Source: an uncultured Desulfosarcina sp.
GTDB lineage: Bacteria > Desulfobacterota > Desulfobacteria > Desulfobacterales > Desulfosarcinaceae
DNA length: 64,000 nucleotides
Direction: 5' to 3'
Assembly (NCBI GenBank): GCA_963674945.2
Contig: CAXXWQ010000003.1
Location: 480,001-544,000 of the forward strand
The notes under the pieces are model-generated. The model was given only the letters and a program-made list of their open reading frames with translations, did not search any database and was not told where the DNA came from. A program made the translations under genes and the position numbers. Shown one piece after another: positions 24,057 through 37,382 of the stretch. Every line of letters starts with the position of its first letter. Position 1 is the stretch's first letter.

Positions 24057-24275
24057 TTACTCACGGTTGGTATCATCATTGGATGGATCGGTTGAATCCG
24101 GCCACTCCCGCTGGAACACGAATCCACCGTCCTCACCGGAAAACAAGCCCGGTCCGGGTTTCTCCTCCCTGCTGTCCTCGTATACGAAGGGTTGGTGGGA
24201 AGATGCACAGCCGGCGCCCAAAAGTCCCAGCGTCACCGCCAGGTATATCCAGATCCATTTGAACCCATGCATCAT
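24057..24275 (-). CDS. small lipoprotein
   Basis: Signal peptide ending LLGAGC; PGPGLFSGEDG segment; coupled to the porin stop codon. Confidence 0.65.
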   Translation of the reverse strand: MMHGFKWIWIYLAVTLGLLGAGCASSHQPFVYEDSREEKPGPGLFSGEDGGFVFQREWPDSTDPSNDDTNRE

Positions 24276-25549
24276 TAGAATTTTACCCGCATACCTGCCA
24301 TGATGGCGTTGATGTTGTCATAATCGGTGCCGTTTCTGTCAAGGGAATGGAAGCGGTAGCCCACGTAGGCTTCCGCCCCCCACGATTCGAGATCCTGGGC
24401 CATCTGGAAGCCGATCATATCCGCCTCGTCACCGTCTTGATCGATATCCGTGGATCGGCAGTAATCCATGGACAGAGAGGTCACCCCCATGGGACACCAG
24501 TTCGCCCGGTAGCCGAATTTGGTGTAGAAAAATGTGCCGTCGTCACGCCCGTCCATTTTGGGGTCCCGGGTTCCCATGGCGAAGGTTCCGTTAAACCCCG
24601 TATCGTGAAGCACGGAGACCGATCCGGCCAACTGTTCGTCCACCGTATCCGAGGTACCTCCTGGATTGGAAAAGGCCGCGGCTGCGGCCACCTTGAATGC
24701 ATCGATCCGTGCTGAATAGCGAATGGCGATGTCTCCGCCGCCATCGGCAATATATGATGCCGATCCCATAAAGCCATTGAAGGTGGGAGTGTCGTATCGA
24801 ATCCGCTCGTCACGGCCGAGACCGTCCATATTCGTGAAGACATTTGAGATGCGGGTACCGGAGAGGCGATTGGTATTTTTGTCGTAAAACAACTGGCCAC
24901 CGGCCATGTCAACGATGCTCGAATATCCCACCACGGAGGTACCGGACAAATCCATTTCAGACGTCCCATCCGAGGCGGTGGAACCCCATCCCATGGAAAG
25001 CTTTCCATAGATCATGGCATCTACCCAAAGGTCCAGATGCCGTTTTCGGAAGTGATTGTCTCCCACGTCACGCCTTTCGATCCGGCTGACGAGATTGCTG
25101 TCATTGGATTGAAACTCGACCTCGATCTTCGAACCGATTTCGTAACGCTCATTGGGAATGACGGTTCCCGTTAGGCCCATGCGGGTCGACGAATTGTCAT
25201 TGTCCACCAGGTACAAATTTCCATCGTCTCCATCGTCACTGTACAAAACGGCCTTGTTGACCTGACCGTAAATCCGAACCGTGGCCTTTGATTTGGTTTT
25301 GACGGTTGTCTCATCACCGGCCGTCGACCGGCCCGTGGTTTTCTCTTCCTGTAAGGCTTCCACCTGCTTTTGCAGCCGGTCGATGTTTTCCTGCTGTGTC
25401 TGAATCTGATCCTGTTGCTGTTGGAGTATTGTCTCGAAACGCTTCGTCTCTTCCACCTGTTCACCATAGGCCGAAGAGGCTGTGAAAACGCCGATTACGG
25501 TGAAAAGTAAAAAAAGTTCCTTGCATCGCATCCATCTTTCCCTTCTCAT
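24275..25549 (-). CDS. outer-membrane porin with N-terminal coiled coil
   Basis: Signal peptide; Gln-rich coil; IYGQVNKAV, SSTRMG and IRYDTP motifs; C-terminal Phe (MRVKF); ATG after GGAGGTG. Confidence 0.82.
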   Translation of the reverse strand: MRRERWMRCKELFLLFTVIGVFTASSAYGEQVEETKRFETILQQQQDQIQTQQENIDRLQKQVEALQEEKTTGRSTAGDETTVKTKSKATVRIYGQVNKAVLYSDDGDDGNLYLVDNDNSSTRMGLTGTVIPNERYEIGSKIEVEFQSNDSNLVSRIERRDVGDNHFRKRHLDLWVDAMIYGKLSMGWGSTASDGTSEMDLSGTSVVGYSSIVDMAGGQLFYDKNTNRLSGTRISNVFTNMDGLGRDERIRYDTPTFNGFMGSASYIADGGGDIAIRYSARIDAFKVAAAAAFSNPGGTSDTVDEQLAGSVSVLHDTGFNGTFAMGTRDPKMDGRDDGTFFYTKFGYRANWCPMGVTSLSMDYCRSTDIDQDGDEADMIGFQMAQDLESWGAEAYVGYRFHSLDRNGTDYDNINAIMAGMRVKF

Positions 25550-25593
25550 TTTCACCTCCCTGATTTTCTGCCCCCCTTTCCTTGGGGATATGG

Positions 25594-25917
25594 TTATTCG
25601 ATATAATCCACCCGGGGTGGTGCAAACACCTCGACGGCCACCGACGCTTCCAAAGCACGGGCGCCATGAAGAACATCCGCCCCGATGCACCAGCTATCGC
25701 CCGGAGAGACGTCGTATTCGGTACCATCGACAATGAGCACAATATGCCCGGAGAGTAACAGGCCCGTTTGCTCGTGTGGATGATCGTGGAGGGGAATGTC
25801 GTACCCTTTCTTCAGCTTGAATTGTGCCATGAGCGTCTCATCGCCATGGACCATCGTACCCAGTTCCACGCCGTCAATCATCTTTCGAAATGTGAGTTGT
25901 TCCGCTTTTTTAAACAT
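25594..25917 (-). CDS. cupin-domain protein
   Basis: PLHDHPHEQTG, PGDSWCI..DVLHG and VEVFAPPR motifs. Confidence 0.88.
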   Translation of the reverse strand: MFKKAEQLTFRKMIDGVELGTMVHGDETLMAQFKLKKGYDIPLHDHPHEQTGLLLSGHIVLIVDGTEYDVSPGDSWCIGADVLHGARALEASVAVEVFAPPRVDYIE

Positions 25918-25949
25918 GTTTTGCTCCTTGCCAGAAGAGAGAGAGGTAT

Positions 25950-27449
25950 CTATTCAACGGCATTCGTGCCCTTTTCACCTGCCTCGAAATCCCCGTCTGT
26001 CTCATAGGCGGACGGAATCGTCTTATTGCTCTTTACCCCGAGAACTTTAAGTTGTTCGGCCCGCCGGATCAGATTGCCCCTGCCGGTGGCTAAGCGATCC
26101 CGGGCAGTGTGATACGCCTGCCTGGCCCGATCCAATTGTCGCCCCACATCCTCCAGCGCCTCGGTAAAACCCACGAATTTATCGTACAACGCTCCCGCCT
26201 GCTTTGCGATCTCCAATGCATTTTCGTTCTGATCCGCAAAGCGCCAGAAGTTCTGAATCGTCCGCAAGGTGACCAGAAGCGTGGATGGTGAAACCAGTAC
26301 GACATTTTTATCGAATGCTTCGGTAAACAATGTTCGGTCATGTTCGAGCGCCAGGAAAAAGGCACCTTCAATGGGAACGAACATGAGAACGAAGTCCAGC
26401 GTTCGCAATGCATCGATCCCTTCGTACTGCTTTCCGCGCAACCCGTTGATATGGTTGCGAACGGATGACAGATGAGCCTTGGCGGCCGTTTGCCGTTCCT
26501 TTTCATCGGTTGCACTGTGAAATCGTTCATAGGCGACAAGGGACACTTTGGAATCCACGACCACATCTTTTCCCTCGGGCAGCCGTATGATGACGTCTGG
26601 CTGGAGCCGTTTCCCGTCGCTATTGGTCATGCTCACCTGGGTTTCGTAAATCCGCCCCTTTTGCAATCCCGATCCTTCGAGGATCCGGGAGAGGATCACC
26701 TCCCCCCAGCCGCCCAGCGTCTTGACATCCCCCTTTAGTGCCTGGGTCAGATTCAACGCATCCTTTCCGATGCGTTCGTTGAGGTTTTTCAAATTGCCGA
26801 TTTCGTGCAAAAGGGTGGCCCGATCCCTTGATTCCTTGTCATAGACGTCTTCCACCCGCTTTTTGAACCCTGCGAGTTGTTCACGAAGCGGTGTGATCAA
26901 CCCGTCCATCTGGATCCGGTTCTGGTCGGTAAATGTTTTCCCCTTCTCATCCAGAATCCGTTGTGCCAGCACCTGAAACGCATGGGTCATCTGTTCCTTT
27001 GCATCTTGCAAAAAAGTGATTCTCTCCTGATCCTGTCTTCGTTCTTCCTCCAAAAGGACGGTCATTTCCGAAAGGCGCTTTTCCAATGCCAGGTTTTCGG
27101 CATTGCATCGATCCTTTTCCCGCCCAACTTGTTCAAGGGCCCGTTCGAGCTGTGGAATTCGCTCGACGGATCGAACCAGGGCGGCGTTTCGCGCTTCGGA
27201 TTCGGCCATGGCATCCCGGCGTTTGTCCAGTGCATCGGTTGTGGCCTTCAACTCTTCGCTGACTGTCTGCAACTGGTGGCGCGTGTCGGCCAATTTATCC
27301 GACAGGGACGCTTTCTCCATGTCCGCCAGTCGGACCAACGCATTCAATTCGCCCTTGCGTCGCACTCGAGACAGGACCAACACAAGTATGGTCACCAAAA
27401 GAAGGCCGACAACCACTCCGAGCAGGCAGGCAATCTCAATTAGCGTCAT
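25950..27449 (-). CDS. rmuC: DNA recombination protein RmuC
   Basis: N-terminal transmembrane helix and coiled coil; GGWGEVIL, QPDVIIRLP, VDSKVSL, DFVLMFVPIE and LYDKF motifs. Confidence 0.93.
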   Translation of the reverse strand: MTLIEIACLLGVVVGLLLVTILVLVLSRVRRKGELNALVRLADMEKASLSDKLADTRHQLQTVSEELKATTDALDKRRDAMAESEARNAALVRSVERIPQLERALEQVGREKDRCNAENLALEKRLSEMTVLLEEERRQDQERITFLQDAKEQMTHAFQVLAQRILDEKGKTFTDQNRIQMDGLITPLREQLAGFKKRVEDVYDKESRDRATLLHEIGNLKNLNERIGKDALNLTQALKGDVKTLGGWGEVILSRILEGSGLQKGRIYETQVSMTNSDGKRLQPDVIIRLPEGKDVVVDSKVSLVAYERFHSATDEKERQTAAKAHLSSVRNHINGLRGKQYEGIDALRTLDFVLMFVPIEGAFFLALEHDRTLFTEAFDKNVVLVSPSTLLVTLRTIQNFWRFADQNENALEIAKQAGALYDKFVGFTEALEDVGRQLDRARQAYHTARDRLATGRGNLIRRAEQLKVLGVKSNKTIPSAYETDGDFEAGEKGTNAVE

Positions 27450-27814: not shown

Positions 27815-28104
27815 TCATGAGTGGTACTGGATACCATGGTCGGTGGGCCGGTGAACCATTGCCCCCAAATAAGGCCTTGCAACCCATGCATTCCCCCTGC
27901 AGTCACACCAGCCGCCGTTTTTCATGCATTGTTTGCAGATCACGGCACCACAATTGATACACTGATAGGCGCGCCGCTGCAACGATGGCCCTTCCAAAAA
28001 AGCGGCGAGGCACGGTTGTGATCTTTAAGAAGACGAATGGAGCGCCCGCAAACGATACAGGTTTCCCGGTGAGGACTTTTGACATCGATGCGTGTTTCCG
28101 TCAC
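27815..28104 (-). pseudogene. small zinc-finger-like gene interrupted by a 1-nt frameshift in a T6 run
   Basis: AAGGAGGT RBS and GTG at 28104 give MTETRIDVKSPHRETCIVCGRSIRLLKDHNRASPLF. The frame beginning at 27997 gives LEGPSLQRRAYQCINCGAVICKQCMKNGGWCDCRG. One extra T at 27996-28001 would fuse them. Confidence 0.55.
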
Positions 28105-28283
28105 TGGTCCACCTCCTTTTCCAGGAAAATATTTGAAATCTTGATCTTCAGCCCAAGCCGTTTTCCACATTTACGATCCGAGCATCCATCGACCCGTCGC
28201 AATGGAAGACGACGAGTGGATTCGGGGGATGAAATAGAATCATACGCGTTGGATAAAAGGTAAAACAGTATATCAATCCAAGA

Positions 28284-28299
28284 TGTGATGGGATTCACA
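28284..28299. promoter_or_regulatory. perfect CRP box TGTGA-N6-TCACA
   Basis: TGTGA TGGGAT TCACA read directly. Confidence 0.75.
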
Positions 28300-28306
28300 C
28301 GCAGCG

Positions 28307-28322
28307 TGTGACTGTGCTCACG
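28307..28322. promoter_or_regulatory. second CRP box TGTGA-N6-TCACG
   Basis: TGTGA CTGTGC TCACG, centred 23 bp from the first box. Confidence 0.65.
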
Positions 28323-28390
28323 ATCACTTCGAAAGGTTGACGGATTCGAGCAACGAAAAAAGCGAGGAGGGGGTAAATTTTCCTTCGGCG

Positions 28391-29026
28391 TCAAAATGTG
28401 TAGGGTAGCTTTTTATTGATTTTCATGCGCCCCATCGTTTTGGAGATGTAGCCGCCGTCGACCAATTCATTGTAGATACGGCACACGGTTTCCCGGGAGG
28501 ATCCGACGATGTCGGCAAGCTCCTGATGGGTCAGCTTCTCTTCGATGACGCCGTCGGCATTCTTGTTTTCGATCAAAAAGCGGGAAAGGCGACCATACAC
28601 GTCGAGAAAAGCCAGTTCACCAATCTGATCGGTCGCTTTTCTCAGTCTTTCCAACAGCGTTTTGATCATGTTTTGATAGATCTGGGGATGCATGGCGGCA
28701 AATTCAAAAAAAGTCTTACGGGGCAAAATCTTGAACGTACACTTCTCCTTTGTGACAACAGTGGCACAACGGGCCTCGTGATCGAACAGGCTCATCTCTC
28801 CGAAGTAGTCCAAGGGACCGAAGCGGTTGACGACGAACTGCCTTCCCGACTCATCGCTGCGCAGGGCCTTGGCCCGGCCTCTCACCACGATGAAAAGGCA
28901 GTCCGTATCGTCACCCTCGTTGATCACCAGGCTGTTTTTCGGAAACGATCGATCCAGGCAGATCGTCTCCAGTGCTGAAATATCCTCTTGGCCTAAATTG
29001 GAAAAAAGTGGAACCTTCTCGAGCAT
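28391..29026 (-). CDS. CRP/FNR-family cyclic-nucleotide-binding transcription regulator
   Basis: FGEMSLF...ARCATV phosphate-binding cassette; LAFLDVYGRL hinge; LTHQELADIVGSSRETVCR HTH; ATG 29026 after GAGGT. Confidence 0.92.
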   Translation of the reverse strand: MLEKVPLFSNLGQEDISALETICLDRSFPKNSLVINEGDDTDCLFIVVRGRAKALRSDESGRQFVVNRFGPLDYFGEMSLFDHEARCATVVTKEKCTFKILPRKTFFEFAAMHPQIYQNMIKTLLERLRKATDQIGELAFLDVYGRLSRFLIENKNADGVIEEKLTHQELADIVGSSRETVCRIYNELVDGGYISKTMGRMKINKKLPYTF

Positions 29027-29107
29027 GTTCTTGACCTCGATCGGTGCCGGCGGACTGCCCCGATCCCCCAATCGAGAATATGGGCGTCGTTGGCGGCCAC
29101 CGGCTTC

Positions 29108-29284
29108 TTACTCCTCGCAGGGACCTACATCCTCACAATCCGGATGGGTGCTGCAGTCTTCCAAGCATTTGTAGATGTACTCCGCGCTGCCGCTGACGAT
29201 GATCTTACACTTACATCTCCGTTTGTTGCATCCGGCGGCGAATACCAGGAAAAGCGCCAATAAAATCAGGACAAACCTTTTCAT
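29108..29284 (-). CDS. 58-aa Cys-rich lipoprotein (not in ORF track)
   Basis: GAGGAGGA RBS; MKRFVLILLALFLVFAAGC-NKRRCKCKIIVSGSAEYIYKCLEDCSTHPDCEDVGPCEE*. Confidence 0.75.
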   Translation of the reverse strand: MKRFVLILLALFLVFAAGCNKRRCKCKIIVSGSAEYIYKCLEDCSTHPDCEDVGPCEE

Positions 29285-29306
29285 TTTGCTTCCTCCTCAA
29301 TCAGGG

Positions 29307-32300
29307 TTAAAAGGACAATGCAACCTGAGCAATGATCAAACGATCCGGAACGTATAACGGTGACAATGGCTCGCTGGTATTAAAATTTACGTCTTGAAAT
29401 GAAAATCGTTTATCGAATAGATTTTTGGCGCTGAACGTAACGGTCCCCAGCCTTTTGGGCAGACGATAGCCAAGGGTGATGTCGGCCACCCAGAAGCGAT
29501 CCTTTTGCGTCTCGCCGGCATCGTCAAGCTTCTGGTTCACATGGGTTCCGACAATCTTGGAAAAGATACCACAGTCAAAATAATAGGCAAGGGTAATCGG
29601 GAACCGATATGTCGTCAGGCGTTTCGGCGTCACGGTAATATATTCGAATTTCTCGACGAAGGCTTCCCCGCTCACGGAAAGATTGCCCCAGGGGATCCAA
29701 TTCAGATAGGCACGGTGCAATTTTTCCTCCTGGTCCTCGTAAACCGTGGCCTCCGAAGAGGTGTCATAGTTGGGAATATCGAGATCGCGCCAGGACAGTT
29801 CGATGCCGCCGAAAAGTGTGTCGAGAATCTGGACATCGGCGGCCACCCCGTATCGTGTCACCTGGCTGCCGTCGATATCATCGAAAAACTGGTTGAACCC
29901 CGCGACCTGTGTCGGCTCCAGGGTCTCGGCAACCGCAAAGGGCCGCTTGACATTCTGAAACCATGCGGCGCGCAAGGAAAGGAAATCCAGCGGCGACCAC
30001 AAAAGGCCACTTTTCAAACGGAACCATTCATCATCGACCACATAATTGTTGATTGCATCATAAGCGGCCCCGACCACACCGACCAAGCCACGGACGATGG
30101 TCGTGTTTGCGTAAAGGTATGCATTGGCATGGTAGGTGTTGCGATCGTATCTGGCCGATGTCGTAGATATATCATCCGGAAGGGAAGGATTCATGGTTAC
30201 TGCGGAAGAAGAATCGATTCGAATCTGATCCATGTGAAAGGCTCCCATTCCCGCAATGATGGCCGTTTTCGTTGACTGATGGATCCATTGAACTTCCCCG
30301 CTGAATGCATTTGCATCCGTTGCGATCAGCTGGTCTTCGTAGGACGGATTTTCGATTCGACTCACCTCGAAGCGATCCGACAATCGTTCGGCCGCATCAC
30401 TTCCGATGAGGGAAACGATCAGATGATCGCGGGGACCCATGCACACGTTTCCTCCCAGGCGAAGACTCTTTTTCGTCTCTTCGGTGCGTTTGTCGGGCGC
30501 GAATCGATCGGGACCGAACAGCATGCGCACATCGCCCCTGTCCGTATCCCGATACCGATATTCGGCTTGAATGCCATGCCTTTTTGGCAGGGACACCTGG
30601 GCGAAGACGTTATAAATATCGTGGGTGAGGTCGTTGTTTTCCCGAAACCCTTCGGTCTGGTGATGAAATTGGCCGAGTGCGTAGGAGAAATTCCGGTAAA
30701 TGCCGGACAGCGTCAGTTCATCACCGAACGTCTCGTTGTTGCCCACCACACCGGACGCCTGGAAGGTATGGCCGTCGCTTACGAACAACGGATTGAATTC
30801 GTTAAACGCCATCCGGGATGGCCCCGTTCCCTGGAGAATCAGAAGATTGGTCTCGTTCTGCTGCGACTGCAGCGGATTCACGTTGACGGGTTGCAACAAC
30901 TTGGCCTGTAACAGCTCACTGGAACGGGCGATCTCATGTCGACGAAGCCGCACATAGGTATCGGACAGGAACCGATGCCCCGCATGTTCGCCGTAGTTCG
31001 TGTTGACTGCCTTCCACCCTTGCACCAGTGCCATCTGTTCAAATCCGAGATCGCTGTAAATCCGTCCCAGGTTTGCGCTACGCGCGGCGAGGTCCTGGTC
31101 CAGCAGCAGTCGAGAGCGGTATATGGCGCGATTGTCGTTCAATTCAATGGATTTTTGCAAATCCAGTAATGCTTCCACGGGCCGGTTGAGGCTCTGCTTG
31201 CGGATGGCGTCATAGAACCAGGGGGTGGGATCGTTGGGATCCAGTTCCTTTGCGATTTCAAACTGCTCACCGTCCTTTGGACCCCGCTTCTCATCGAAAT
31301 AGGCCTTTCCCAGATAACTTCGAATGAGCGAATTGTGCGGATCCAGGCCGGCGGCAATCTCGATCTCCTTTCGTCCCTGCGCCAGGTCTCCATCGCGAAT
31401 GGTTGCCAGCCCGAGACCAAGGCGCGGCAAGGGGGCTGACGAGTCTATGTGGATGGCCGTGTTGAATGCCTTTCGCGCCTCATCGGTTTCTATGCGGGTC
31501 AGATGGGCAAACCCCAGTAAAGAGTGGGCATTGCCATTGTAGGGATCGCGCCGGATAGCCTCTTTGGCGGCTGCGACGCCTTGGTCCAGGTTCCCGAAAG
31601 AGAGCCGCAAGTCAGCCAAACGGGCCCAGGCGATGCTGTTTTCAGGAGCCTGTTCCACCGCCTCCATTGCGATGTCCAGTGCGGCATGAAGTTGAAACGC
31701 GGCTTGGAGGGCATAGGAGAGGGCAATCTTGGTGGCTGCCGATCCGGGGGAGAGACGAACCGCTGCCCGGGCGGTAGACAGGGCGATGGTTGGACGGTTC
31801 TGGACGATATCGATAATGGCCAGAAGCGCCATCGCATCGCCATCTTCCGGCGCCATCGCCAGGGCGCGACCGATATCGGAGCGCGCCTCGACAACACGGC
31901 CCACGTGGAGCAGGAGTCCTGCACGAAGCAAAAAGTATCGTTCATCTTGATCCTGCGGAGCCGTGCTGCCGAGATGATCAATGGCTTCGTCGATCCGACC
32001 GTCACGAACCAGGTCGAATATCGTCTCATCGATTCCGGCCCAGCCTTCGGGCGCCAAGGACAGTACGGACGGGTAGTAGAGCGCCCACTGAACGCTGTCC
32101 TGCGGGTGAACGAGAATTCGGCGCTGTGGTGCGGTACCGGCCGAGGCAACGACCCCCTGCCCTTTCTCCAATAGAACAGAGCCATTGGCATTCTCTGCGA
32201 GAATGCGTCCTTGGAAAAGATCGATACGGGTCTTTTCGGAACCGACTTCCACAAAAAATTCGGTTCCCTGGACCACGCCGTTGACGAAAGGGGTGAAAAT

Positions 32301-32681
32301 TTTCAGGCTTCGGGGACGATGGCTGAAGAAATCAGCGGCCCCTTTGATCAATTTAAGAATATACGTGGAAGGACGTTCGATCTCGGTAAAGACAAGATGG
32401 GTGTCTTGATTCAACCGCACCAATGCATCGTTGCAGAGCACGAAACCGGCCCGGCTGTTGTGACCCACCCAGACTTGATCACCGGCGAAAAAAATGTCGT
32501 TAAGACGAACCTGCTGGTACTTCGACTCTCCCAATCGTTGCACCACAACACGACCCTGGATGGAAACGATTTTGCTCACCCAAGCCTCATTCCGATCCCC
32601 CGCCACCGCCACACCATCGATTTGAACAAAACCGGCACAACAAAACCAGAAGGTGAGAAAAAACAGCATCCTGCGCAGCAC
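29307..32681 (-). CDS. outer-membrane receptor: FecR domain + TPR repeats + C-terminal beta-barrel
   Basis: Signal peptide; FecR-like region (GDQVWVG..SRA, TPFVNGVVQGTEF); many TPR helices; alternating beta strands ending VALSF. Confidence 0.85.
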   Translation of the reverse strand: MLRRMLFFLTFWFCCAGFVQIDGVAVAGDRNEAWVSKIVSIQGRVVVQRLGESKYQQVRLNDIFFAGDQVWVGHNSRAGFVLCNDALVRLNQDTHLVFTEIERPSTYILKLIKGAADFFSHRPRSLKIFTPFVNGVVQGTEFFVEVGSEKTRIDLFQGRILAENANGSVLLEKGQGVVASAGTAPQRRILVHPQDSVQWALYYPSVLSLAPEGWAGIDETIFDLVRDGRIDEAIDHLGSTAPQDQDERYFLLRAGLLLHVGRVVEARSDIGRALAMAPEDGDAMALLAIIDIVQNRPTIALSTARAAVRLSPGSAATKIALSYALQAAFQLHAALDIAMEAVEQAPENSIAWARLADLRLSFGNLDQGVAAAKEAIRRDPYNGNAHSLLGFAHLTRIETDEARKAFNTAIHIDSSAPLPRLGLGLATIRDGDLAQGRKEIEIAAGLDPHNSLIRSYLGKAYFDEKRGPKDGEQFEIAKELDPNDPTPWFYDAIRKQSLNRPVEALLDLQKSIELNDNRAIYRSRLLLDQDLAARSANLGRIYSDLGFEQMALVQGWKAVNTNYGEHAGHRFLSDTYVRLRRHEIARSSELLQAKLLQPVNVNPLQSQQNETNLLILQGTGPSRMAFNEFNPLFVSDGHTFQASGVVGNNETFGDELTLSGIYRNFSYALGQFHHQTEGFRENNDLTHDIYNVFAQVSLPKRHGIQAEYRYRDTDRGDVRMLFGPDRFAPDKRTEETKKSLRLGGNVCMGPRDHLIVSLIGSDAAERLSDRFEVSRIENPSYEDQLIATDANAFSGEVQWIHQSTKTAIIAGMGAFHMDQIRIDSSSAVTMNPSLPDDISTTSARYDRNTYHANAYLYANTTIVRGLVGVVGAAYDAINNYVVDDEWFRLKSGLLWSPLDFLSLRAAWFQNVKRPFAVAETLEPTQVAGFNQFFDDIDGSQVTRYGVAADVQILDTLFGGIELSWRDLDIPNYDTSSEATVYEDQEEKLHRAYLNWIPWGNLSVSGEAFVEKFEYITVTPKRLTTYRFPITLAYYFDCGIFSKIVGTHVNQKLDDAGETQKDRFWVADITLGYRLPKRLGTVTFSAKNLFDKRFSFQDVNFNTSEPLSPLYVPDRLIIAQVALSF

Positions 32682-32757
32682 TATTTCAACCCCTTTCTAT
32701 CCTTTGGCCAATCCGTTCCGATTCAAACCAAGTCAAAGCAAAGTGGATGGATGATGA

Positions 32758-35022
32758 CTATTTTTTTTCCAGGCATACGACACCATCCCAATCACCGCCA
32801 GGTGGATGATGTCTAACATCCCGGCATCGATGGATATAAAACAGCGACGGGCCATCCATTTCATCGATTTGCAGTGCCTGATCAAAACATTGTTCCGCTT
32901 CATCCCAGCGACCATGTTGAAATGCATCCAGTCCTGACGAAAAAAGACGGCATAGGGCATCCTGCTCCTCCCATCGGTCCGGATCCGGGAGAATAAGCTC
33001 ATGAACATGCACGGGTTGAGATTTTCCTTTGAAGACGAATCGTCCGACCGGACGGCTTATCAGACCATCGTTTGCGCAAATGGCGTCCTTGGAAACCAGA
33101 ACCTGCGTCCCGAGGTATTTATTCAGACCTTCCAGCCGGGAGGCCGTATTGACGATATCCCCTACGGGTCTGTATTCAAAATGATTCATGGCACCGATGT
33201 TTCCCAGAAGCATTTCACCCGCATGAATTCCGATTCGGGTCGGCATGGCATTTTGCCCAACCTGTTTGTTGAATCGCCTGACGGTTGTCGTAATCTCGAT
33301 GGCGGCACGGCAAGCTGCATTTTTGAGTTCATCCTTCGCCTCGGGGGCCGACCAAAGTGCCATGACCGAATCACCCACCACCTGCAGCACCAGCCCCTTG
33401 TTGTCTTTAATGGGTCCAAAGACGGCCTCGTAGTACCTGTTCATCAGCCGTGTGAGACTTCCAGGATCCAGACGTTCCGAAAGGGCGGTGTAATTCTGCG
33501 CATCCGTAAACAGGCAAACCCCGTAAAACACCTGGCCACCGAGACGAAGCGCCTTCGTGTTGGCCGATAACCGATCCACCAAATCGTTCGGAAGATAGTA
33601 ACCGAACGCCTCGCGGATATTCTCCCGCTCTCGGGAGACCTGCCGGTATTTCAGGACGATGCAAACGATGTAAGAGGCATGCGTTTGAAGTAAAATGGGT
33701 ACCACCAAGGGATACCAGACGCCGCTGACTTTAAACTGATAGTTGGCCACCACAAAATAGAATCCGTTTAAAAGCACAAGGCCGAATGCGGAAACGATGG
33801 AGGAGAAATGAAGGCTGATGAGTACTGTGATCACCCCCCAAATCATCAGAAAAAGCGTGCATGGGACTGGTGGCAAAGGATAAACGGCTTTGTCCTCAAC
33901 GAGATTGGCAAAGGCCGTGGCGGCGATTTCCACACCGCTGACATCCTGTCCCGTTTTCCCGGAAAAGACGGTGTAGAAACCGTCATGGGTCTTTATCCAG
34001 TTGCTGCCGGTCTGTCCCACAAAGTAGGCCTTTCTTCCTGAAATCATCGATTTTTCACCGATGTTATCGGATTCAGGTTCTACCAGCAGTTGGTGATAGG
34101 GAAGGTTTGGAATCGTGCCTGCCGGACCGTAAAAATTAATGTATCGGCTTTTTCCATTTTTATAGAGGTTTAGGAGAGAACGGATCAACTGCCTGTTGAC
34201 ATATGTAATTTCCTCTTCAGGAACACTCGATAGTGTTTCCAATGCTTCTTCGGCCAATGTCGAATTGTTCTCGAAGAGCGTCCGCAGGGGACGAATCATG
34301 GTAACGATGGTCCGTTCGTCGTAAAGTCCGTCTTCGGCCACGGGAATCACACGGCCGATTTCGCCATTCACGGACAGGAGAAGATCGATAAATGCGGGAA
34401 AAGCTTCCTTGGCAAAGATATGAAAGGTCACGACCGGTAAGGTCGGAATGTTCCCGGAACCGGGCCGAAAAAGCCAATATTGATTCAGTTGAATGGGAAT
34501 TTTCGGAAGTGGGAAGGGAGCTTGCCCGACGGCGGCGTCGCCGAGCAGGGGGATGGCCGATATCATCCGCTCGATGTTGAGACTGACCGTTCGACTGCCG
34601 CCTTGATCCTGGATCGGAAGGGTCCGCCTGTCGATACTTTGGGTCAATACGACATTACCGGCATTACGAATGGCCGATGCGAACATCTCATCGTTGACCT
34701 CATCTTGGGGTTCATAGAAAATCATATCGAAGGCGATTACCCCGGCCTGCCTGGTGGACAATTTTTCGACAAGGTTGGCGTGGAGCTGTCTTGGCCATTT
34801 ATTGGGAACGAACGGAAGGCCCAACGCTTTGGCGGATTCACTGTTGATGGCGACAACCGCCACATCGACATTTGCCTTCTCCGGTCCGCGAAGGATATAT
34901 AAAAGTTGGAGGCCGAGGCTCTCCTCTGCGTCCAATATCATGGGTATCATACTGGAAATTACACCCAACAAGCTGATCCCAATGCATATGTAGTATCTCG
35001 CCCTCGGTTGACGACGGGACAT
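32758..35022 (-). CDS. CHASE2-domain membrane class III nucleotide cyclase
   Basis: CHASE2 (WPRQLHA, IAFDMIF, SGVEIAATAFANL); three transmembrane helices; cyclase motifs LFTDAQNYT, VVGDSVMA, GIHAG, GDIVNTASRLEGLNK; C-terminal TPR-like tail WDGV. Confidence 0.92.
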   Translation of the reverse strand: MSRRQPRARYYICIGISLLGVISSMIPMILDAEESLGLQLLYILRGPEKANVDVAVVAINSESAKALGLPFVPNKWPRQLHANLVEKLSTRQAGVIAFDMIFYEPQDEVNDEMFASAIRNAGNVVLTQSIDRRTLPIQDQGGSRTVSLNIERMISAIPLLGDAAVGQAPFPLPKIPIQLNQYWLFRPGSGNIPTLPVVTFHIFAKEAFPAFIDLLLSVNGEIGRVIPVAEDGLYDERTIVTMIRPLRTLFENNSTLAEEALETLSSVPEEEITYVNRQLIRSLLNLYKNGKSRYINFYGPAGTIPNLPYHQLLVEPESDNIGEKSMISGRKAYFVGQTGSNWIKTHDGFYTVFSGKTGQDVSGVEIAATAFANLVEDKAVYPLPPVPCTLFLMIWGVITVLISLHFSSIVSAFGLVLLNGFYFVVANYQFKVSGVWYPLVVPILLQTHASYIVCIVLKYRQVSRERENIREAFGYYLPNDLVDRLSANTKALRLGGQVFYGVCLFTDAQNYTALSERLDPGSLTRLMNRYYEAVFGPIKDNKGLVLQVVGDSVMALWSAPEAKDELKNAACRAAIEITTTVRRFNKQVGQNAMPTRIGIHAGEMLLGNIGAMNHFEYRPVGDIVNTASRLEGLNKYLGTQVLVSKDAICANDGLISRPVGRFVFKGKSQPVHVHELILPDPDRWEEQDALCRLFSSGLDAFQHGRWDEAEQCFDQALQIDEMDGPSLFYIHRCRDVRHHPPGGDWDGVVCLEKK

Positions 35023-35491
35023 CGGATCTCCTCAATCTTACGTAAACCACACAAACGCGTTCTTGTCGCGACAACATTTTCGTATAAGGTGCGGAAAATA
35101 CGTAGATTTCATGCTACTAACGAACTGGCGTGATCACCCTTCCTCCGCCGTTGTATCTGGAAAAGGGATTCCGCGTGGAACGCGTTGGACACGCCTTTTT
35201 TCAACCAGTAACGGTCGCGCGTCAGAGCAAATTCATCGATTGTTGATCTAATGGGGCTGAAAGAATCGAATTGGTTGAATTATGCCAAATTATTACAAAA
35301 ACGCCTGGATATGTCAACACAAAGAGGAGACATCCGACGCCTTTCACCTTACAAAGAAGGTTACGGGCATAAAGGCGCCATCGGTATCCTCCCACACGAA
35401 CAGTATCGTGAAACTTTGCGGCAAATATGATAAGCAATTCACAATTGAAGTCGTTTCGATCCGATGTACAAGATCGTAGACGCGGATCTTC

Positions 35492-36421
35492 TTGAAAATT
35501 CAACCTGGTTTACAGGAAAAGCAGGTGAAGACAACCGAATACAACGGCTCATATAATCGACTGGAACGCCTCGACCGTTACCTCGCGGAAAAAGAATCGC
35601 AGGTTTCTCATTTACGGGACGATTGTGAAAAAAAAATTGTCTGGTACAACGGCATACGACGCAGACGGAAATTGGCCATCGTTTACATTCACGGTTTTTC
35701 CGCCAGCCGCAAGGAGACCTGGCCCCTGTGTGACAGACTGGCCCGCCTTGTAAACGCCAATTTGTTTTACACCCGGCTGGCCGGACATGGGCAGGATGGA
35801 GCCGCAATGGGCGAGGCCCGGGTTTCGGATTGGTTGAACGATGGTATGGAGGCGGTGTCCATAGGCCGGATGCTTGGAGAGAAGATTATCCTTGTGGGTA
35901 CGTCCACAGGCGGCACCCTGGTGACCTGGTTATCATCCCAAAAGGAGGTGATTCCTGTGATCGCGGGTTTGATCTTGATTTCTCCCAATTTTTTCCCCTT
36001 AAATCCCATGGCAGCCGCTACATTGTGGCCACCGGGTCTCCGGTTTTTTGAACGATTGATGGGAAGCTGGCGATGTTTGACGGTCTCAAACACCACACAG
36101 GCGAACTACTGGACCGTCCGATATCCGATTCGGTCCATACGCACCATGATGCAACTGGTCCGCCTCTCCTGGCGGGTCAATCTGAGAAGGATTGCGGCCC
36201 CCGTGTTGATGCTGACCAACCCGTTCGACAGGATCGTAAACGTATTGCTGGCGAGGATCCGTTTCTCGGGTTTCGGATCCAAGGCCAAACGGGTAATATG
36301 GTTTACGGCCAACAAGGATCCGGACCGCCATTTACTGGCCGGCAACCTGATGGCTCCGGAGGGAACCGATGAAGCACTGGCAAGGATTCAACGTTTTCTC
36401 TCCGAATTCGTCCTTAATTAG
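35492..36421 (+). CDS. alpha/beta-fold hydrolase (esterase/lysophospholipase-like)
   Basis: YIHGFSAS, RLAGHG and the GTSTGG nucleophile elbow. Start codon uncertain. Confidence 0.82.
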   Translation: MKIQPGLQEKQVKTTEYNGSYNRLERLDRYLAEKESQVSHLRDDCEKKIVWYNGIRRRRKLAIVYIHGFSASRKETWPLCDRLARLVNANLFYTRLAGHGQDGAAMGEARVSDWLNDGMEAVSIGRMLGEKIILVGTSTGGTLVTWLSSQKEVIPVIAGLILISPNFFPLNPMAAATLWPPGLRFFERLMGSWRCLTVSNTTQANYWTVRYPIRSIRTMMQLVRLSWRVNLRRIAAPVLMLTNPFDRIVNVLLARIRFSGFGSKAKRVIWFTANKDPDRHLLAGNLMAPEGTDEALARIQRFLSEFVLN

Positions 36422-36647
36422 TTTTATTCAAACCGTGTGCTGTGTACCCGGAGCCAACCCGAGCGACACAGCACTGACGTGCTTTCAGATAGCCGGCCGA
36501 TGGAGCGAATATCCAAGCCACACGTTTCGCGGGTAGTCGTTGACTGACAGATAGGGGTTTGCTAAGAATTGGAATCTCCTCTTCTTGTTAAGACATCCAA
36601 CAAAATGGGAGATATCCCCAAAGCAGTATATCATTTGAAAGGAGGCC

Positions 36648-37382
36648 ATGATGAGGTCTTTGTTTCTTCTCGCCCTTTCCCTTTTCGTCATTGCAAGTCC
36701 AAGCGCCGTATTGGCCCAAACCCAATCTTCCCTCGATCGAAATCTTATTTTTGCGGAGGGAACGGCAGAGGTCACGGGCCAGAATGACTCGGCCGGGATT
36801 TCACTTTCGGTGCAAAGTGAAGCCCGAGAGATGGAATCGGCGGCAACCGACAATGCCGCCAGAACAGAAGCCGTTTTGCAGGCAATCAAGTCGCTTCGCA
36901 TTGAAAATCTGAAGGTAAAAACCAGCGATTATCGCGTTACGCCCCAAAAAGATTTTAAGGCAAGACCGCCTGTAACCAAGGGGTATGTCGTTCACAACGA
37001 TATCGAGATCACGACGGAAGGCTTTACTCCTGAAAAGTTGGCCGACCATGTATCGAAGATTATTGACACAGCCCTTATGAAAGGCGCAAACACGGTTCGG
37101 AACATTCAGTTTTATGTCAAGGACAAGCATGAACTGGAAAAACAGGGACTGACACTTGCAACCAAAGATGCCATTGTCCAGGCGCAAATCCTGGCCGGTG
37201 CCGCGGGTGTCAAGCTCAAACGAATCGTTTCCATCAGCACCCGACCGATCGCTGCGCCGGTACGGGCCGAAATGCTCAGGGCTGCCACAATAACCGCAAA
37301 AGACGCCTCCATGGAACCCCCCATCGAGTCCGGGGAAAGCAAAATTCGAGTCCGCGTGAGCGTGGTATACGAAATGGAATAG
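36648..37382 (+). CDS. SIMPL/DUF541 periplasmic protein
   Basis: Signal peptide; GTAEV..DSA; A..LA..AGVKL; PIESGE..VRVSVVYE. Confidence 0.85.
   Translation: MMRSLFLLALSLFVIASPSAVLAQTQSSLDRNLIFAEGTAEVTGQNDSAGISLSVQSEAREMESAATDNAARTEAVLQAIKSLRIENLKVKTSDYRVTPQKDFKARPPVTKGYVVHNDIEITTEGFTPEKLADHVSKIIDTALMKGANTVRNIQFYVKDKHELEKQGLTLATKDAIVQAQILAGAAGVKLKRIVSISTRPIAAPVRAEMLRAATITAKDASMEPPIESGESKIRVRVSVVYEME

Follow-up and report, generated by a model that had tools for sequence, protein, structure and literature searches.

A CHASE2 cyclase and NsrA-like receptor cluster in an uncultured Desulfosarcina, a putative variant of the Sinorhizobium NsrA-CyaK-Clr relay with a candidate lipoprotein ligand

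We analyzed a 64,000-nt stretch of the genome of an uncultured Desulfosarcina sp. (the window; contig CAXXWQ010000003.1, positions 480,001 to 544,000), in which five co-oriented minus-strand genes had been proposed to form a self-contained trans-envelope signaling system (Table 1). The cyclase, receptor, lipoprotein, and CRP-family regulator stand as proposed, with intergenic gaps of 76 nt (cyclase–receptor), 22 nt (receptor–lipoprotein), and 81 nt (lipoprotein–CRP); the fifth is the 3′ fragment of a frameshifted gene. The candidate sigma70-type promoter is weak, because the scan that returned it gave eight sites versus 6.4 expected; the terminator scan was at chance level (12 versus 8.9 expected), and an Rfam search gave zero matches.

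Table 1. Genes and sequence features of the cluster (positions in the window)
Feature	Coordinates	Strand	Description and basis
Candidate sigma70-type promoter	35289..35317	-	267 nt upstream of the cyclase start; 11/12 consensus match, extended -10
CHASE2 class III nucleotide cyclase	32758..35022	-	754 aa, inner-membrane; Pfam, hydropathy, alignment to solved cyclases, 119 homologs
NsrA-like outer-membrane receptor	29307..32681	-	1124 aa; Pfam, AF2, Foldseek, hhalign
Cys-rich lipoprotein, "type B" partner	29108..29284	-	58 aa; translation, family alignments, trees, complex model
CRP-family regulator	28391..29026	-	211 aa from ATG 29026, alternative start TTG 29071; Pfam/NCBIfam, CAP alignment
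CRP box, 1 mismatch	28307..28322	.	Motif search; 23-bp tandem kept at loci L021 and L022
CRP box, perfect TGTGA-N6-TCACA	28284..28299	.	Among 8 perfect boxes in the 7.08 Mb genome
Frameshifted eight-Cys zinc-finger gene, candidate target	27815..28104	-	Alignment to homologous genes

The cyclase–receptor pair

The cyclase contains CHASE2 (Pfam E = 1.6e-21) and Guanylate_cyc (6.8e-15) domains, with C-terminal TPRs falling under the cut-off, and its hydropathy profile has one N-terminal TM and further TMs at about residues 380-460. The metal-binding residues D507 and D551 and the transition-state residues N625 and R629 are intact and are invariant in 119 of the 119 matches listed. The base-selecting positions are occupied by Q547 and R618, where adenylate cyclases have Lys and Thr or Asp; Lys is found at the first of these in none of the 119 matches listed (QR 100, DR 13, NR 4, QL 1, DT 1). 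The clade comprises at least 1665 database proteins, the closest members of which lack the ATP-reading Lys. A canonical guanylate cyclase would have Glu at the first and Cys, Gly, or Ser at the second position, and this assignment was rejected for the Gln/Arg enzyme; in relatives, enzymes with Glu/Gly lie outside this clade. Other cyclases of the same genome, with Lys/Thr, could supply cAMP.

The receptor harbors a FecR domain (2.9e-8), TPRs, a weak TonB-barrel match, and a C-terminal Phe, and is arranged as FecR (residues 36-189), TPR/helical (219-596), and barrel (637-1123) regions, the last predicted to have 22 strands in an AF2 model with a pLDDT of 81.9. Foldseek matches this barrel to TonB-dependent transporter barrels (E of about 1e-15, 10-14% identity); Pfam returned no plug family match, and in the model the barrel comes after helices and a stretch of low confidence. 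TonB-dependent transducers (FecA/FecR cell-surface signaling) have the 22-strand barrel fold and a FecR domain in common with the receptor, but here FecR is part of the receptor chain, joined to it by TPRs, and the output is a cyclase rather than an ECF sigma factor.

An hhalign comparison aligns the receptor over its full length (99.8%, 22% identity) with an Ensifer adhaerens protein taken to be the NsrA ortholog there, which adjoins a CHASE2 cyclase, and it is through this ortholog, not S. meliloti NsrA itself, that homology to NsrA is shown; S. meliloti pSymB was absent among the plasmid matches listed (40 of 76 records in one search). Of 29 family loci, 28 have the receptor directly after the cyclase, and the remaining one ends at a contig edge; the same order holds in 7/7 close phylum loci. 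The full-length receptor homology, the CHASE2 neighbor, and this adjacency support the original prediction of a trans-envelope relay like NsrA/CyaK/Clr.

CRP regulator, boxes, and zinc-finger gene

Aligned to CAP, its closest match among solved structures, the CRP conserves the CAP-type R180/E181/R185 helix and carries Cys, Ala, and Thr at the positions of S83, T127, and S128, respectively. The genome encodes just one other full CRP-HTH protein, an HcpR, which was ruled out as the reader of the boxes, as it sits elsewhere beside hcp and has Pro at position 180; Pro180-type HcpR is linked to a TTGAC-N4-GTCAA motif (PMC1274295).

The two predicted CRP boxes, 23 bp apart, are supported by conservation. 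Loose matches (≤2 mismatches) occur in the window at chance level (20 versus 24.6 expected), 23-bp tandem pairs are found four times in the genome versus zero times in each of three shuffles, and seven of the eight perfect boxes lie outside long ORFs, though such ORFs cover about 82% of the genome. At two other places in the genome, tandem boxes precede a gene encoding a 102-aa membrane protein.

The 60-aa ORF originally read as the zinc-finger output gene (27815-27997) is the 3′ portion of a longer gene with its start at 28104, which contains a net two extra nucleotides near 28014-28020 relative to four of five homologous genes compared, the fifth aligning only downstream of the frameshift point. 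This alignment rules out a position in a T6 run at about 28000. The frameshift letters are identical in contigs of runs X1 and X2 (one sample, perhaps that from which the window came) and X4 (a second sample of the same study), and the frameshift is therefore not only an assembly error of the window; assembly error as the sole cause is ruled out for this strain group. An intact paralog in the same genome (G000:C4:1150685-1150978) lacks a box. A box (≤1 mismatch, ≤500 nt upstream) is present at 10/10 zinc-finger loci in nine other genomes against a background of 0.68%, a count over loci that are kin and not independent. Because these intact orthologs all have the box, the family is a likely CRP target, and the prediction of an output gene survives for the family, although the copy here is broken. 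Neither Atlas nor Pfam gave a family assignment for this zinc finger.

This CRP, used as query, was found in 15 of 17 genomes with a Gln/Arg cyclase and in 0 of 12 same-genus genomes with an Asp/Arg cyclase; the Gln/Arg enzymes form one clade, and this co-occurrence thus counts as one event. The five-gene form, proposed as self-contained, recurs in only two of nine further genomes with the zinc finger. In the gene-neighborhood comparison that had been proposed, the pairing of cyclase and receptor is near-universal, whereas linkage of the CRP and target is confined to a sub-lineage.

The small partner of the barrel

The lipoprotein has a lipobox (Cys19) and belongs to no Pfam family. Cys19 is only five residues from the first Cys of the domain, and with the lipid so near, surface exposure or release of the lipoprotein must be assumed. 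A profile search of 1.84 billion representatives gave 18 matches, 15 of them 58-191 aa long, with the other three (585-1290 aa) dropped as likely Cys-rich false positives (one inspected); a word search for relatives returned only the lipoprotein itself, and an Atlas search gave no usable match. A small gene of either this type B or a second type, A, lies beside 31 of the 50 receptor matches listed, the others having other partner types, being fragments, or lacking an ORF that passes the filter. Homology between the two types was ruled out, as their alignment covers the signal peptide only; Pfam matched none of six type B partners and, at chance level, one of 25 type A partners.

The type of lipoprotein agrees with the barrel tree but not with the FecR/TPR tree. 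The six type B receptors among 37 form one clade in the former (SH-aLRT 100), whereas the FecR+TPR tree requires four changes of type (AU p = 1.06e-109). The barrel and the small gene are physically adjacent, so that co-inheritance follows from linkage alone; the two have apparently been exchanged together between strains, by recombination that would change specificity.

A complex model of lipoprotein and barrel scored 0.79, compared with 0.00 for the best of three controls that did not include a type A partner. Of 157 solved complexes, 116 attain the mark used for this score, as do two of 215 mismatched pairs, counts that are only rough with the alignments used here; by the tool's own warning, close cousins also pass. 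Model runs share at least 92% of contacts, with a partner pLDDT of at least 79, and all 39 contact residues lie on the outer loops or outer strand halves of the barrel. These residues are its least conserved, with 26% identity within type B and 10% to other receptors, compared with 47% and 35% for the rest of the barrel. The model predicts that the lipoprotein docks on the variable extracellular face.

The reading that we consider on balance probable is an NsrA-CyaK-Clr-type relay in which the lipoprotein is the cognate ligand of the barrel, the cyclase probably makes cGMP, and the CRP provides the output. Here, the adjacent lipoprotein would be the cognate extracellular ligand, with binding activating rather than blocking the receptor. 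It is rather unlikely, in our judgment, that the lipoprotein of this same relay is instead a resident lid or cork that closes or modulates the barrel, or protects it against phages or bacteriocins, the true signal being foreign. The complex model, which places the lipoprotein in the outer mouth, fits a lid as well as a ligand, and a lid would also be in keeping with a lipid anchor on a very short linker and with solved TonB-dependent-type barrels with bound lipoproteins or peptides (FhuA-Llp and FhuA-microcin J25, among the Foldseek matches); on the other hand, some partner-family members lack a lipobox and many type A partners have no obvious signal peptide, one genome encodes three receptors with three different small partners, and variability within the barrel peaks at the contact surface, as a recognition code would predict. 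The foreign signal of a lid has a precedent in NsrA, which senses foreign basic proteins (uL2) (PMC7529298, partial text); this, together with the lack of a small gene after the rhizobial pair at L082 (one pair inspected), unlike here, where a partner gene follows the barrel, means that a self-ligand is not needed for the receptor class.

Messenger and proposed relay

Q547 and R618, together with a CRP pocket that departs from that of CAP, indicate that the messenger is probably not cAMP. Judged from sequence, cGMP has about an even chance of being the product, cAMP is doubtful, cUMP or another nucleotide is improbable, and an inactive cyclase is quite improbable. A class III enzyme that makes cGMP, PfPucC of a Pucsar system, likewise pairs an acid or amide with a basic residue at the base-reading positions (Glu/Lys at those equivalent to Lys/Asp, with contacts taken from an AF3 model), although it is antiphage, is associated with TIR or TM effectors, and belongs to a different clade with Glu/Lys, not Gln/Arg (preprint 10.64898/2026.08.12.744502, partial text). 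A Pycsar/Pucsar antiphage system was ruled out for the cluster, which has a membrane CHASE2 cyclase and a CRP-HTH effector, not a soluble PycC/PucC with TIR/TM. On the CRP side, the Clr Thr that is replaced by Ala here binds both cAMP N6 and cGMP O6 (PMC10127613, partial text), and the pocket therefore does not select cGMP; it matches neither that of CgrA nor that of XC_0249.

We regard as improbable an ordinary cAMP version of the NsrA-CyaK-Clr relay, in which the Gln/Arg pair would still let ATP in and the small gene would be a passenger. The catalytic residues are intact, the CRP is closest to CAP and has CAP-type boxes, and Rv0386, a mycobacterial adenylate cyclase, has Gln at the first base position. 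Specificity residues also predict poorly in Ma1120, where swaps gave no clean specificity switch (PMC4215837, partial text). Against these points, Arg at the second position can act only as a hydrogen-bond donor and would be placed opposite the 6-amino group of adenine, the T127 equivalent is lost in the CRP, the Lys-less clade is split from the Lys enzymes with a support of 100, and the position of the small gene is widely occupied, with an occupant that varies with the barrel. That the cyclase makes a cyclic pyrimidine (cUMP) read by the CRP, or is a nucleotide-binding pseudo-enzyme, is very unlikely: the donor/acceptor edge of uracil would match that of guanine, a long Arg could take up the space left by a smaller base, and Pycsar uridylate cyclases have bulky and basic pocket residues (PMC11224242, partial text), but at the S128 position the CRP has Thr in place of the Asn with which PycTIR reads uracil, Pycsar cyclases are absent among 48 solved-structure matches, and the invariant catalytic residues argue against a dead enzyme.

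In the relay that we favor, with the lipoprotein as ligand, the signal would reach the CHASE2 cyclase by way of the TPR and FecR parts of the receptor, a FecR-CHASE2 contact being suggested by analogy to NsrA and CyaK, both of which are required for signal perception (PMC7529298, partial text). The product of the cyclase would probably be cGMP, not cAMP, and the CRP would then induce genes preceded by TGTGA-N6-TCACA boxes, with the zinc-finger protein and the 102-aa membrane protein as putative outputs. The receptor and its self-made ligand would be exchanged as a cassette on a conserved signaling chassis.

To our knowledge, work on relays of the NsrA type has been limited to a single symbiont. 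As judged by sequence, the cluster is a variant of that relay. An outer-membrane barrel receptor, a CHASE2 cyclase, and a CRP output are common to it and to S. meliloti NsrA, CyaK/CyaD1/CyaD2, and Clr, and in NsrA the barrel (within residues 600-1200) is likewise C-terminal (PMC7529298, PMC13001267, PMC5498481, PMC10127613, partial texts). The cyclase precedes the receptor here, whereas the receptor comes first in the rhizobial loci; the base-selecting residues are Gln/Arg rather than the Lys/Ser of the rhizobial cyclases (L081, L082); the CRP pocket has R-C and A-T in place of the R-S and T-T of Clr; and the boxes are CAP-type, unlike the Clr box. CHASE2 cyclase clusters of Campylobacterota, which have spread by horizontal transfer, also include FecR-domain outer-membrane and TPR proteins, but as separate FecR and TPR genes accompanied by a phosphodiesterase, and the available part of that report mentions neither a small partner nor altered specificity (PMC9239204). 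The Gcy/CgrA cascade of Rhodospirillum centenum likewise has a CRP with a CAP-like box in a linked promoter and reads cGMP; CgrA keeps the CAP signatures except R-T, and no barrel receptor is described for this cascade in the available text (PMC10187061).

It supplies a candidate ligand encoded in the genome, whose binding site is predicted, natural variants of the swap as specificity controls, and a CRP with mapped boxes usable for a reporter. The favored relay, if true, would add a peptide-to-cGMP route of surface recognition in abundant marine sulfate reducers; with cAMP as the messenger and the small protein as a lid, it would be a modest extension of a known pathway. A broader and more speculative extrapolation, which we hold to be unlikely, is a widespread self-recognition code, in which hypervariable small disulfide-rich proteins and their cognate barrels are swapped as cassettes on a constant FecR/TPR-CHASE2 chassis, and kin or neighbor identity would be read at the cell surface as cGMP via a charge-reversed cyclase and a dedicated CRP, inducing further receptor-ligand pairs. 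At one of the two other places with the 102-aa membrane protein, the next gene along encodes a second receptor, whose small partner is a different one.

Cluster layout and relation to known systems

The window cluster is a variant of the NsrA–CyaK–Clr kind, which it would resemble in its workings as far as the accessible text of PMC7529298, PMC13001267, and PMC5498481 describes that system, and from which it differs in cyclase residues, CRP pocket, box, gene order, and small partner. The window receptor is homologous along its full length to a presumed rhizobial NsrA ortholog, which bears out the likeness to the Sinorhizobium meliloti CHASE2 cyclase, FecR–TPR barrel, and CRP cascade drawn in the original prediction. 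Unlike the window cluster, its counterpart in Campylobacterota is split, according to the part of PMC9239204 available. A search of the open-access literature found no paper on this relay in this lineage, on the small partner, or on the Gln/Arg cyclase clade.

Five co-oriented minus-strand genes had been proposed; four are intact and in place, separated by 76, 22, and 81 nt, and the fifth ORF is a gene fragment.

Features of the candidate signaling cluster and its CRP boxes
Feature	Position	Strand	State
CHASE2 class III cyclase, 754 aa	32758-35022	minus	intact
FecR-TPR-barrel protein, 1124 aa	29307-32681	minus	intact
Lipoprotein, 58 aa	29108-29284	minus	intact
CRP	28391-29026, alternative start 29071	minus	intact
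CRP box	28307-28322		
CRP box	28284-28299		

The named cyclases nearest to the window enzyme are Desulfosarcina records (57-58%), so the host probably belongs to this genus. The flanks (24275-27449 and 35492-37382) look unremarkable, with a porin-like protein, cupin, RmuC, alpha/beta hydrolase, and SIMPL protein, and reveal no sharp step in GC.

Of 65 family genomes, 32 have the cyclase (E ≤ 1e-50), 23 the CRP (E ≤ 1e-45), and 10 the zinc finger; in the phylum sample, 18/301 match the cyclase at a cut-off of E ≤ 1e-60, and close relatives occur in five other genomes. The co-conservation expected across Desulfobacterota holds for the cyclase–receptor pair: a FecR receptor directly follows the cyclase at 28 of 29 family loci (loci given for 30/33 matches, the window's own excluded) and at 7/7 close phylum loci, and the one exception lies 195 nt from a contig end. 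It does not extend to the order CRP, two boxes, zinc finger, which recurs in 2 of the 9 other zinc-finger genomes; two further ones have zinc finger and cyclase in head-to-head orientation, and another two have the zinc finger within about 3 kb. Of the 22 other CRP-bearing genomes, 11 have the CRP after the receptor, and the remainder have it elsewhere. Stops or frameshifts split the receptor genes of several relatives (loci L026, L040, L045, L047, L048, and L058).

Cyclase residues and the candidate messenger

Alignment to solved cyclases places Q547 at the position of the adenylate-cyclase Lys and guanylate-cyclase Glu, and R618 at that of the adenylate-cyclase Thr/Asp and guanylate-cyclase Cys. 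Among the best 119 of 1665 homologs, these positions read QR in 100, DR in 13, NR in 4, and QL and DT in one each, with no Lys, and D507, D551, N625, and R629 are kept in all 119. The Lys-less cyclases form a clade of their own that excludes both the Lys and the Glu/Gly enzymes. With an acceptor in first place and a donor in second, the residue pair would suit guanine or uracil, not adenine. PfPucC, as far as the preprint text available goes (10.64898/2026.08.12.744502), makes cGMP, with Glu/Lys at both positions in an AF3 model.

The CRP pocket has Cys, Ala, and Thr at the positions of CAP S83, T127, and S128. A window-type CRP is found in 15/17 Gln/Arg genomes versus 0/12 Asp/Arg genomes of the same genus, an association that counts as a single event because the Gln/Arg group is one clade; two Asp/Ser genomes carry an R-T/S-T CRP. 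We make no firm call on the messenger because the Thr lost in the window CRP contacts cAMP and cGMP alike in Clr (PMC10127613), the pocket is unlike and fits none of CgrA, XC_0249, and PycTIR (PMC10187061, PMC3770947, PMC11224242), residue swaps in Ma1120 gave mixed specificity (PMC4215837), all as described in the portions of these papers available, and the genome also encodes Lys/Thr cyclases. We give cGMP an even chance of being the product; cAMP is rather unlikely, a pyrimidine or other nucleotide more doubtful still, and an inactive cyclase the least probable case. At loci L034, L038, L039, and L046, receptors with no detected small gene are convergent to a Glu/Gly CHASE2 cyclase, a guanylate-cyclase-like pair.

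CRP boxes and the genes behind them

Both boxes predicted after the CRP gene are present, and such 23-bp-spaced pairs number four in the 7.08-Mb genome versus zero in each of three shuffles. The window CRP is their likely reader, because the sole other CRP-HTH protein of the genome, an HcpR adjoining hcp and carrying Pro180, belongs to a type tied to a motif other than CAP-type boxes in the accessible part of PMC1274295.

The zinc-finger gene, proposed as the target, begins at 28104; relative to 4/5 homologs compared, it carries a net two extra nucleotides near 28014-28020. The letters at this frameshift are identical in contigs from sequencing runs of one study: X1 and X2, both of a sample that may be the source, and X4, of a second sample. 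The same genome has an intact paralog at G000:C4:1150685-1150978. Support for the target comes from nine other genomes, where a box (≤1 mismatch, ≤500 nt upstream) precedes 10/10 zinc-finger loci, which include kin and hence are not independent, versus 0.68% of random windows; the intact paralog in this genome has no such box.

Two further tandem 23-bp boxes (G000:C4:1935730-1940200, locus L041, and G000:C1:99156-99900) lie upstream of paralogous 102-aa membrane proteins of no Pfam family; downstream of the C4 copy lies a second receptor of the FecR-TPR-barrel kind, together with a small gene of type A, possibly a feed-forward part of the regulon. Other perfect boxes (G000:C3:994459, C3:1069584, C4:2448386, C2:425298, and C2:443510) precede, as labeled from reading the sequence, three ORFs, one long, acidic, and lipoprotein-like, one radical-SAM-like, and one of 659 aa, and a pair of intergenic stretches that are nearly identical. 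Loci L097, L098, L100, L107, L109, and L121 retain a perfect box after the CRP gene even with no detected zinc-finger gene, and thus the target slot seems conserved while its gene varies. In another genus (L111, L114, L115, L116, L118, and L120), the same CRP lies behind a perfect box and adjoins a roughly 1130-aa zinc-ribbon–cyclase–AAA–TPR protein whose first base position is Arg. A two-mismatch box at 35428-35443, upstream of the candidate cyclase promoter in the interval to the divergent hydrolase, is at chance level.

Receptor, small partners, and the proposed relay

An AF2 model of the receptor (37 sequences; pLDDT 81.9, pTM 0.76) comprises a FecR domain (36-189), helical repeats (219-596), and 22 strands (637-1123), and the structures that Foldseek ranks highest against it are barrels of TonB-dependent transporters, with 10-14% identity. 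Small genes 3' of receptors, in 50 listed entries including some fragments, are of type A (a two-Cys hairpin at the end) in 25 and of type B, like the window lipoprotein, in 6; the rest have further types or no ORF passing the filter. The signal peptide is the only part common to both types, a Pfam search of both returned no family, and a type B profile run against 1.84 billion proteins retrieves 18, of which 15 are short family members. With labels assigned from the small proteins after barrel scores had been seen but before the trees, quick trees (LG+G4) place all 6 type B receptors of 37 in one barrel clade (SH-aLRT 100); on the tree built from FecR+TPR, type B needs four changes and a single clade is rejected (p-AU 1.06e-109). 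This shows mosaic receptor inheritance; adjacency alone could be enough to explain a small gene travelling with its barrel.

Modeled as a complex, receptor residues 500-1124 and lipoprotein residues 19-58 reached a score of 0.79 versus 0.00 for the best of three controls, none of them a non-cognate partner; the mark is passed by 116/157 solved complexes and 2/215 mismatched pairs, counts that are only rough with the alignments used. Runs agreed in at least 92% of contacts, with lipoprotein pLDDT of at least 79, and the model supports the proposed binding of the lipoprotein to the barrel. All 39 predicted receptor contacts fall on the long-loop face, which strand parity marks as extracellular, and conservation is lowest at these positions; the available part of PMC7529298 proposes that the NsrA ligand docks on the same face.

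Most likely, the lipoprotein would be surface-exposed or released and dock on its cognate barrel at the outer mouth, the TPR/FecR arm would signal to CHASE2, as NsrA/CyaK genetics suggest, the cyclase would make a non-cAMP nucleotide, probably cGMP, and the CRP, judging by conservation, would switch on boxed promoters. The outputs would include the zinc-finger family, whose member in the window is broken, and possibly the second receptor–partner pair. The main rival keeps the same relay and makes the lipoprotein a lid on the receptor.

A third receptor paralog (L042, G000:C4:2288177-2291599) has a partner of type A but neither a cyclase nor a box in its vicinity, and its sequence clusters with Asp/Arg-lineage receptors. 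At L021:6251-15175, two tandem receptors, each with a small gene, lie behind one cyclase, and the type B gene there repeats its domain three times and has no lipobox.
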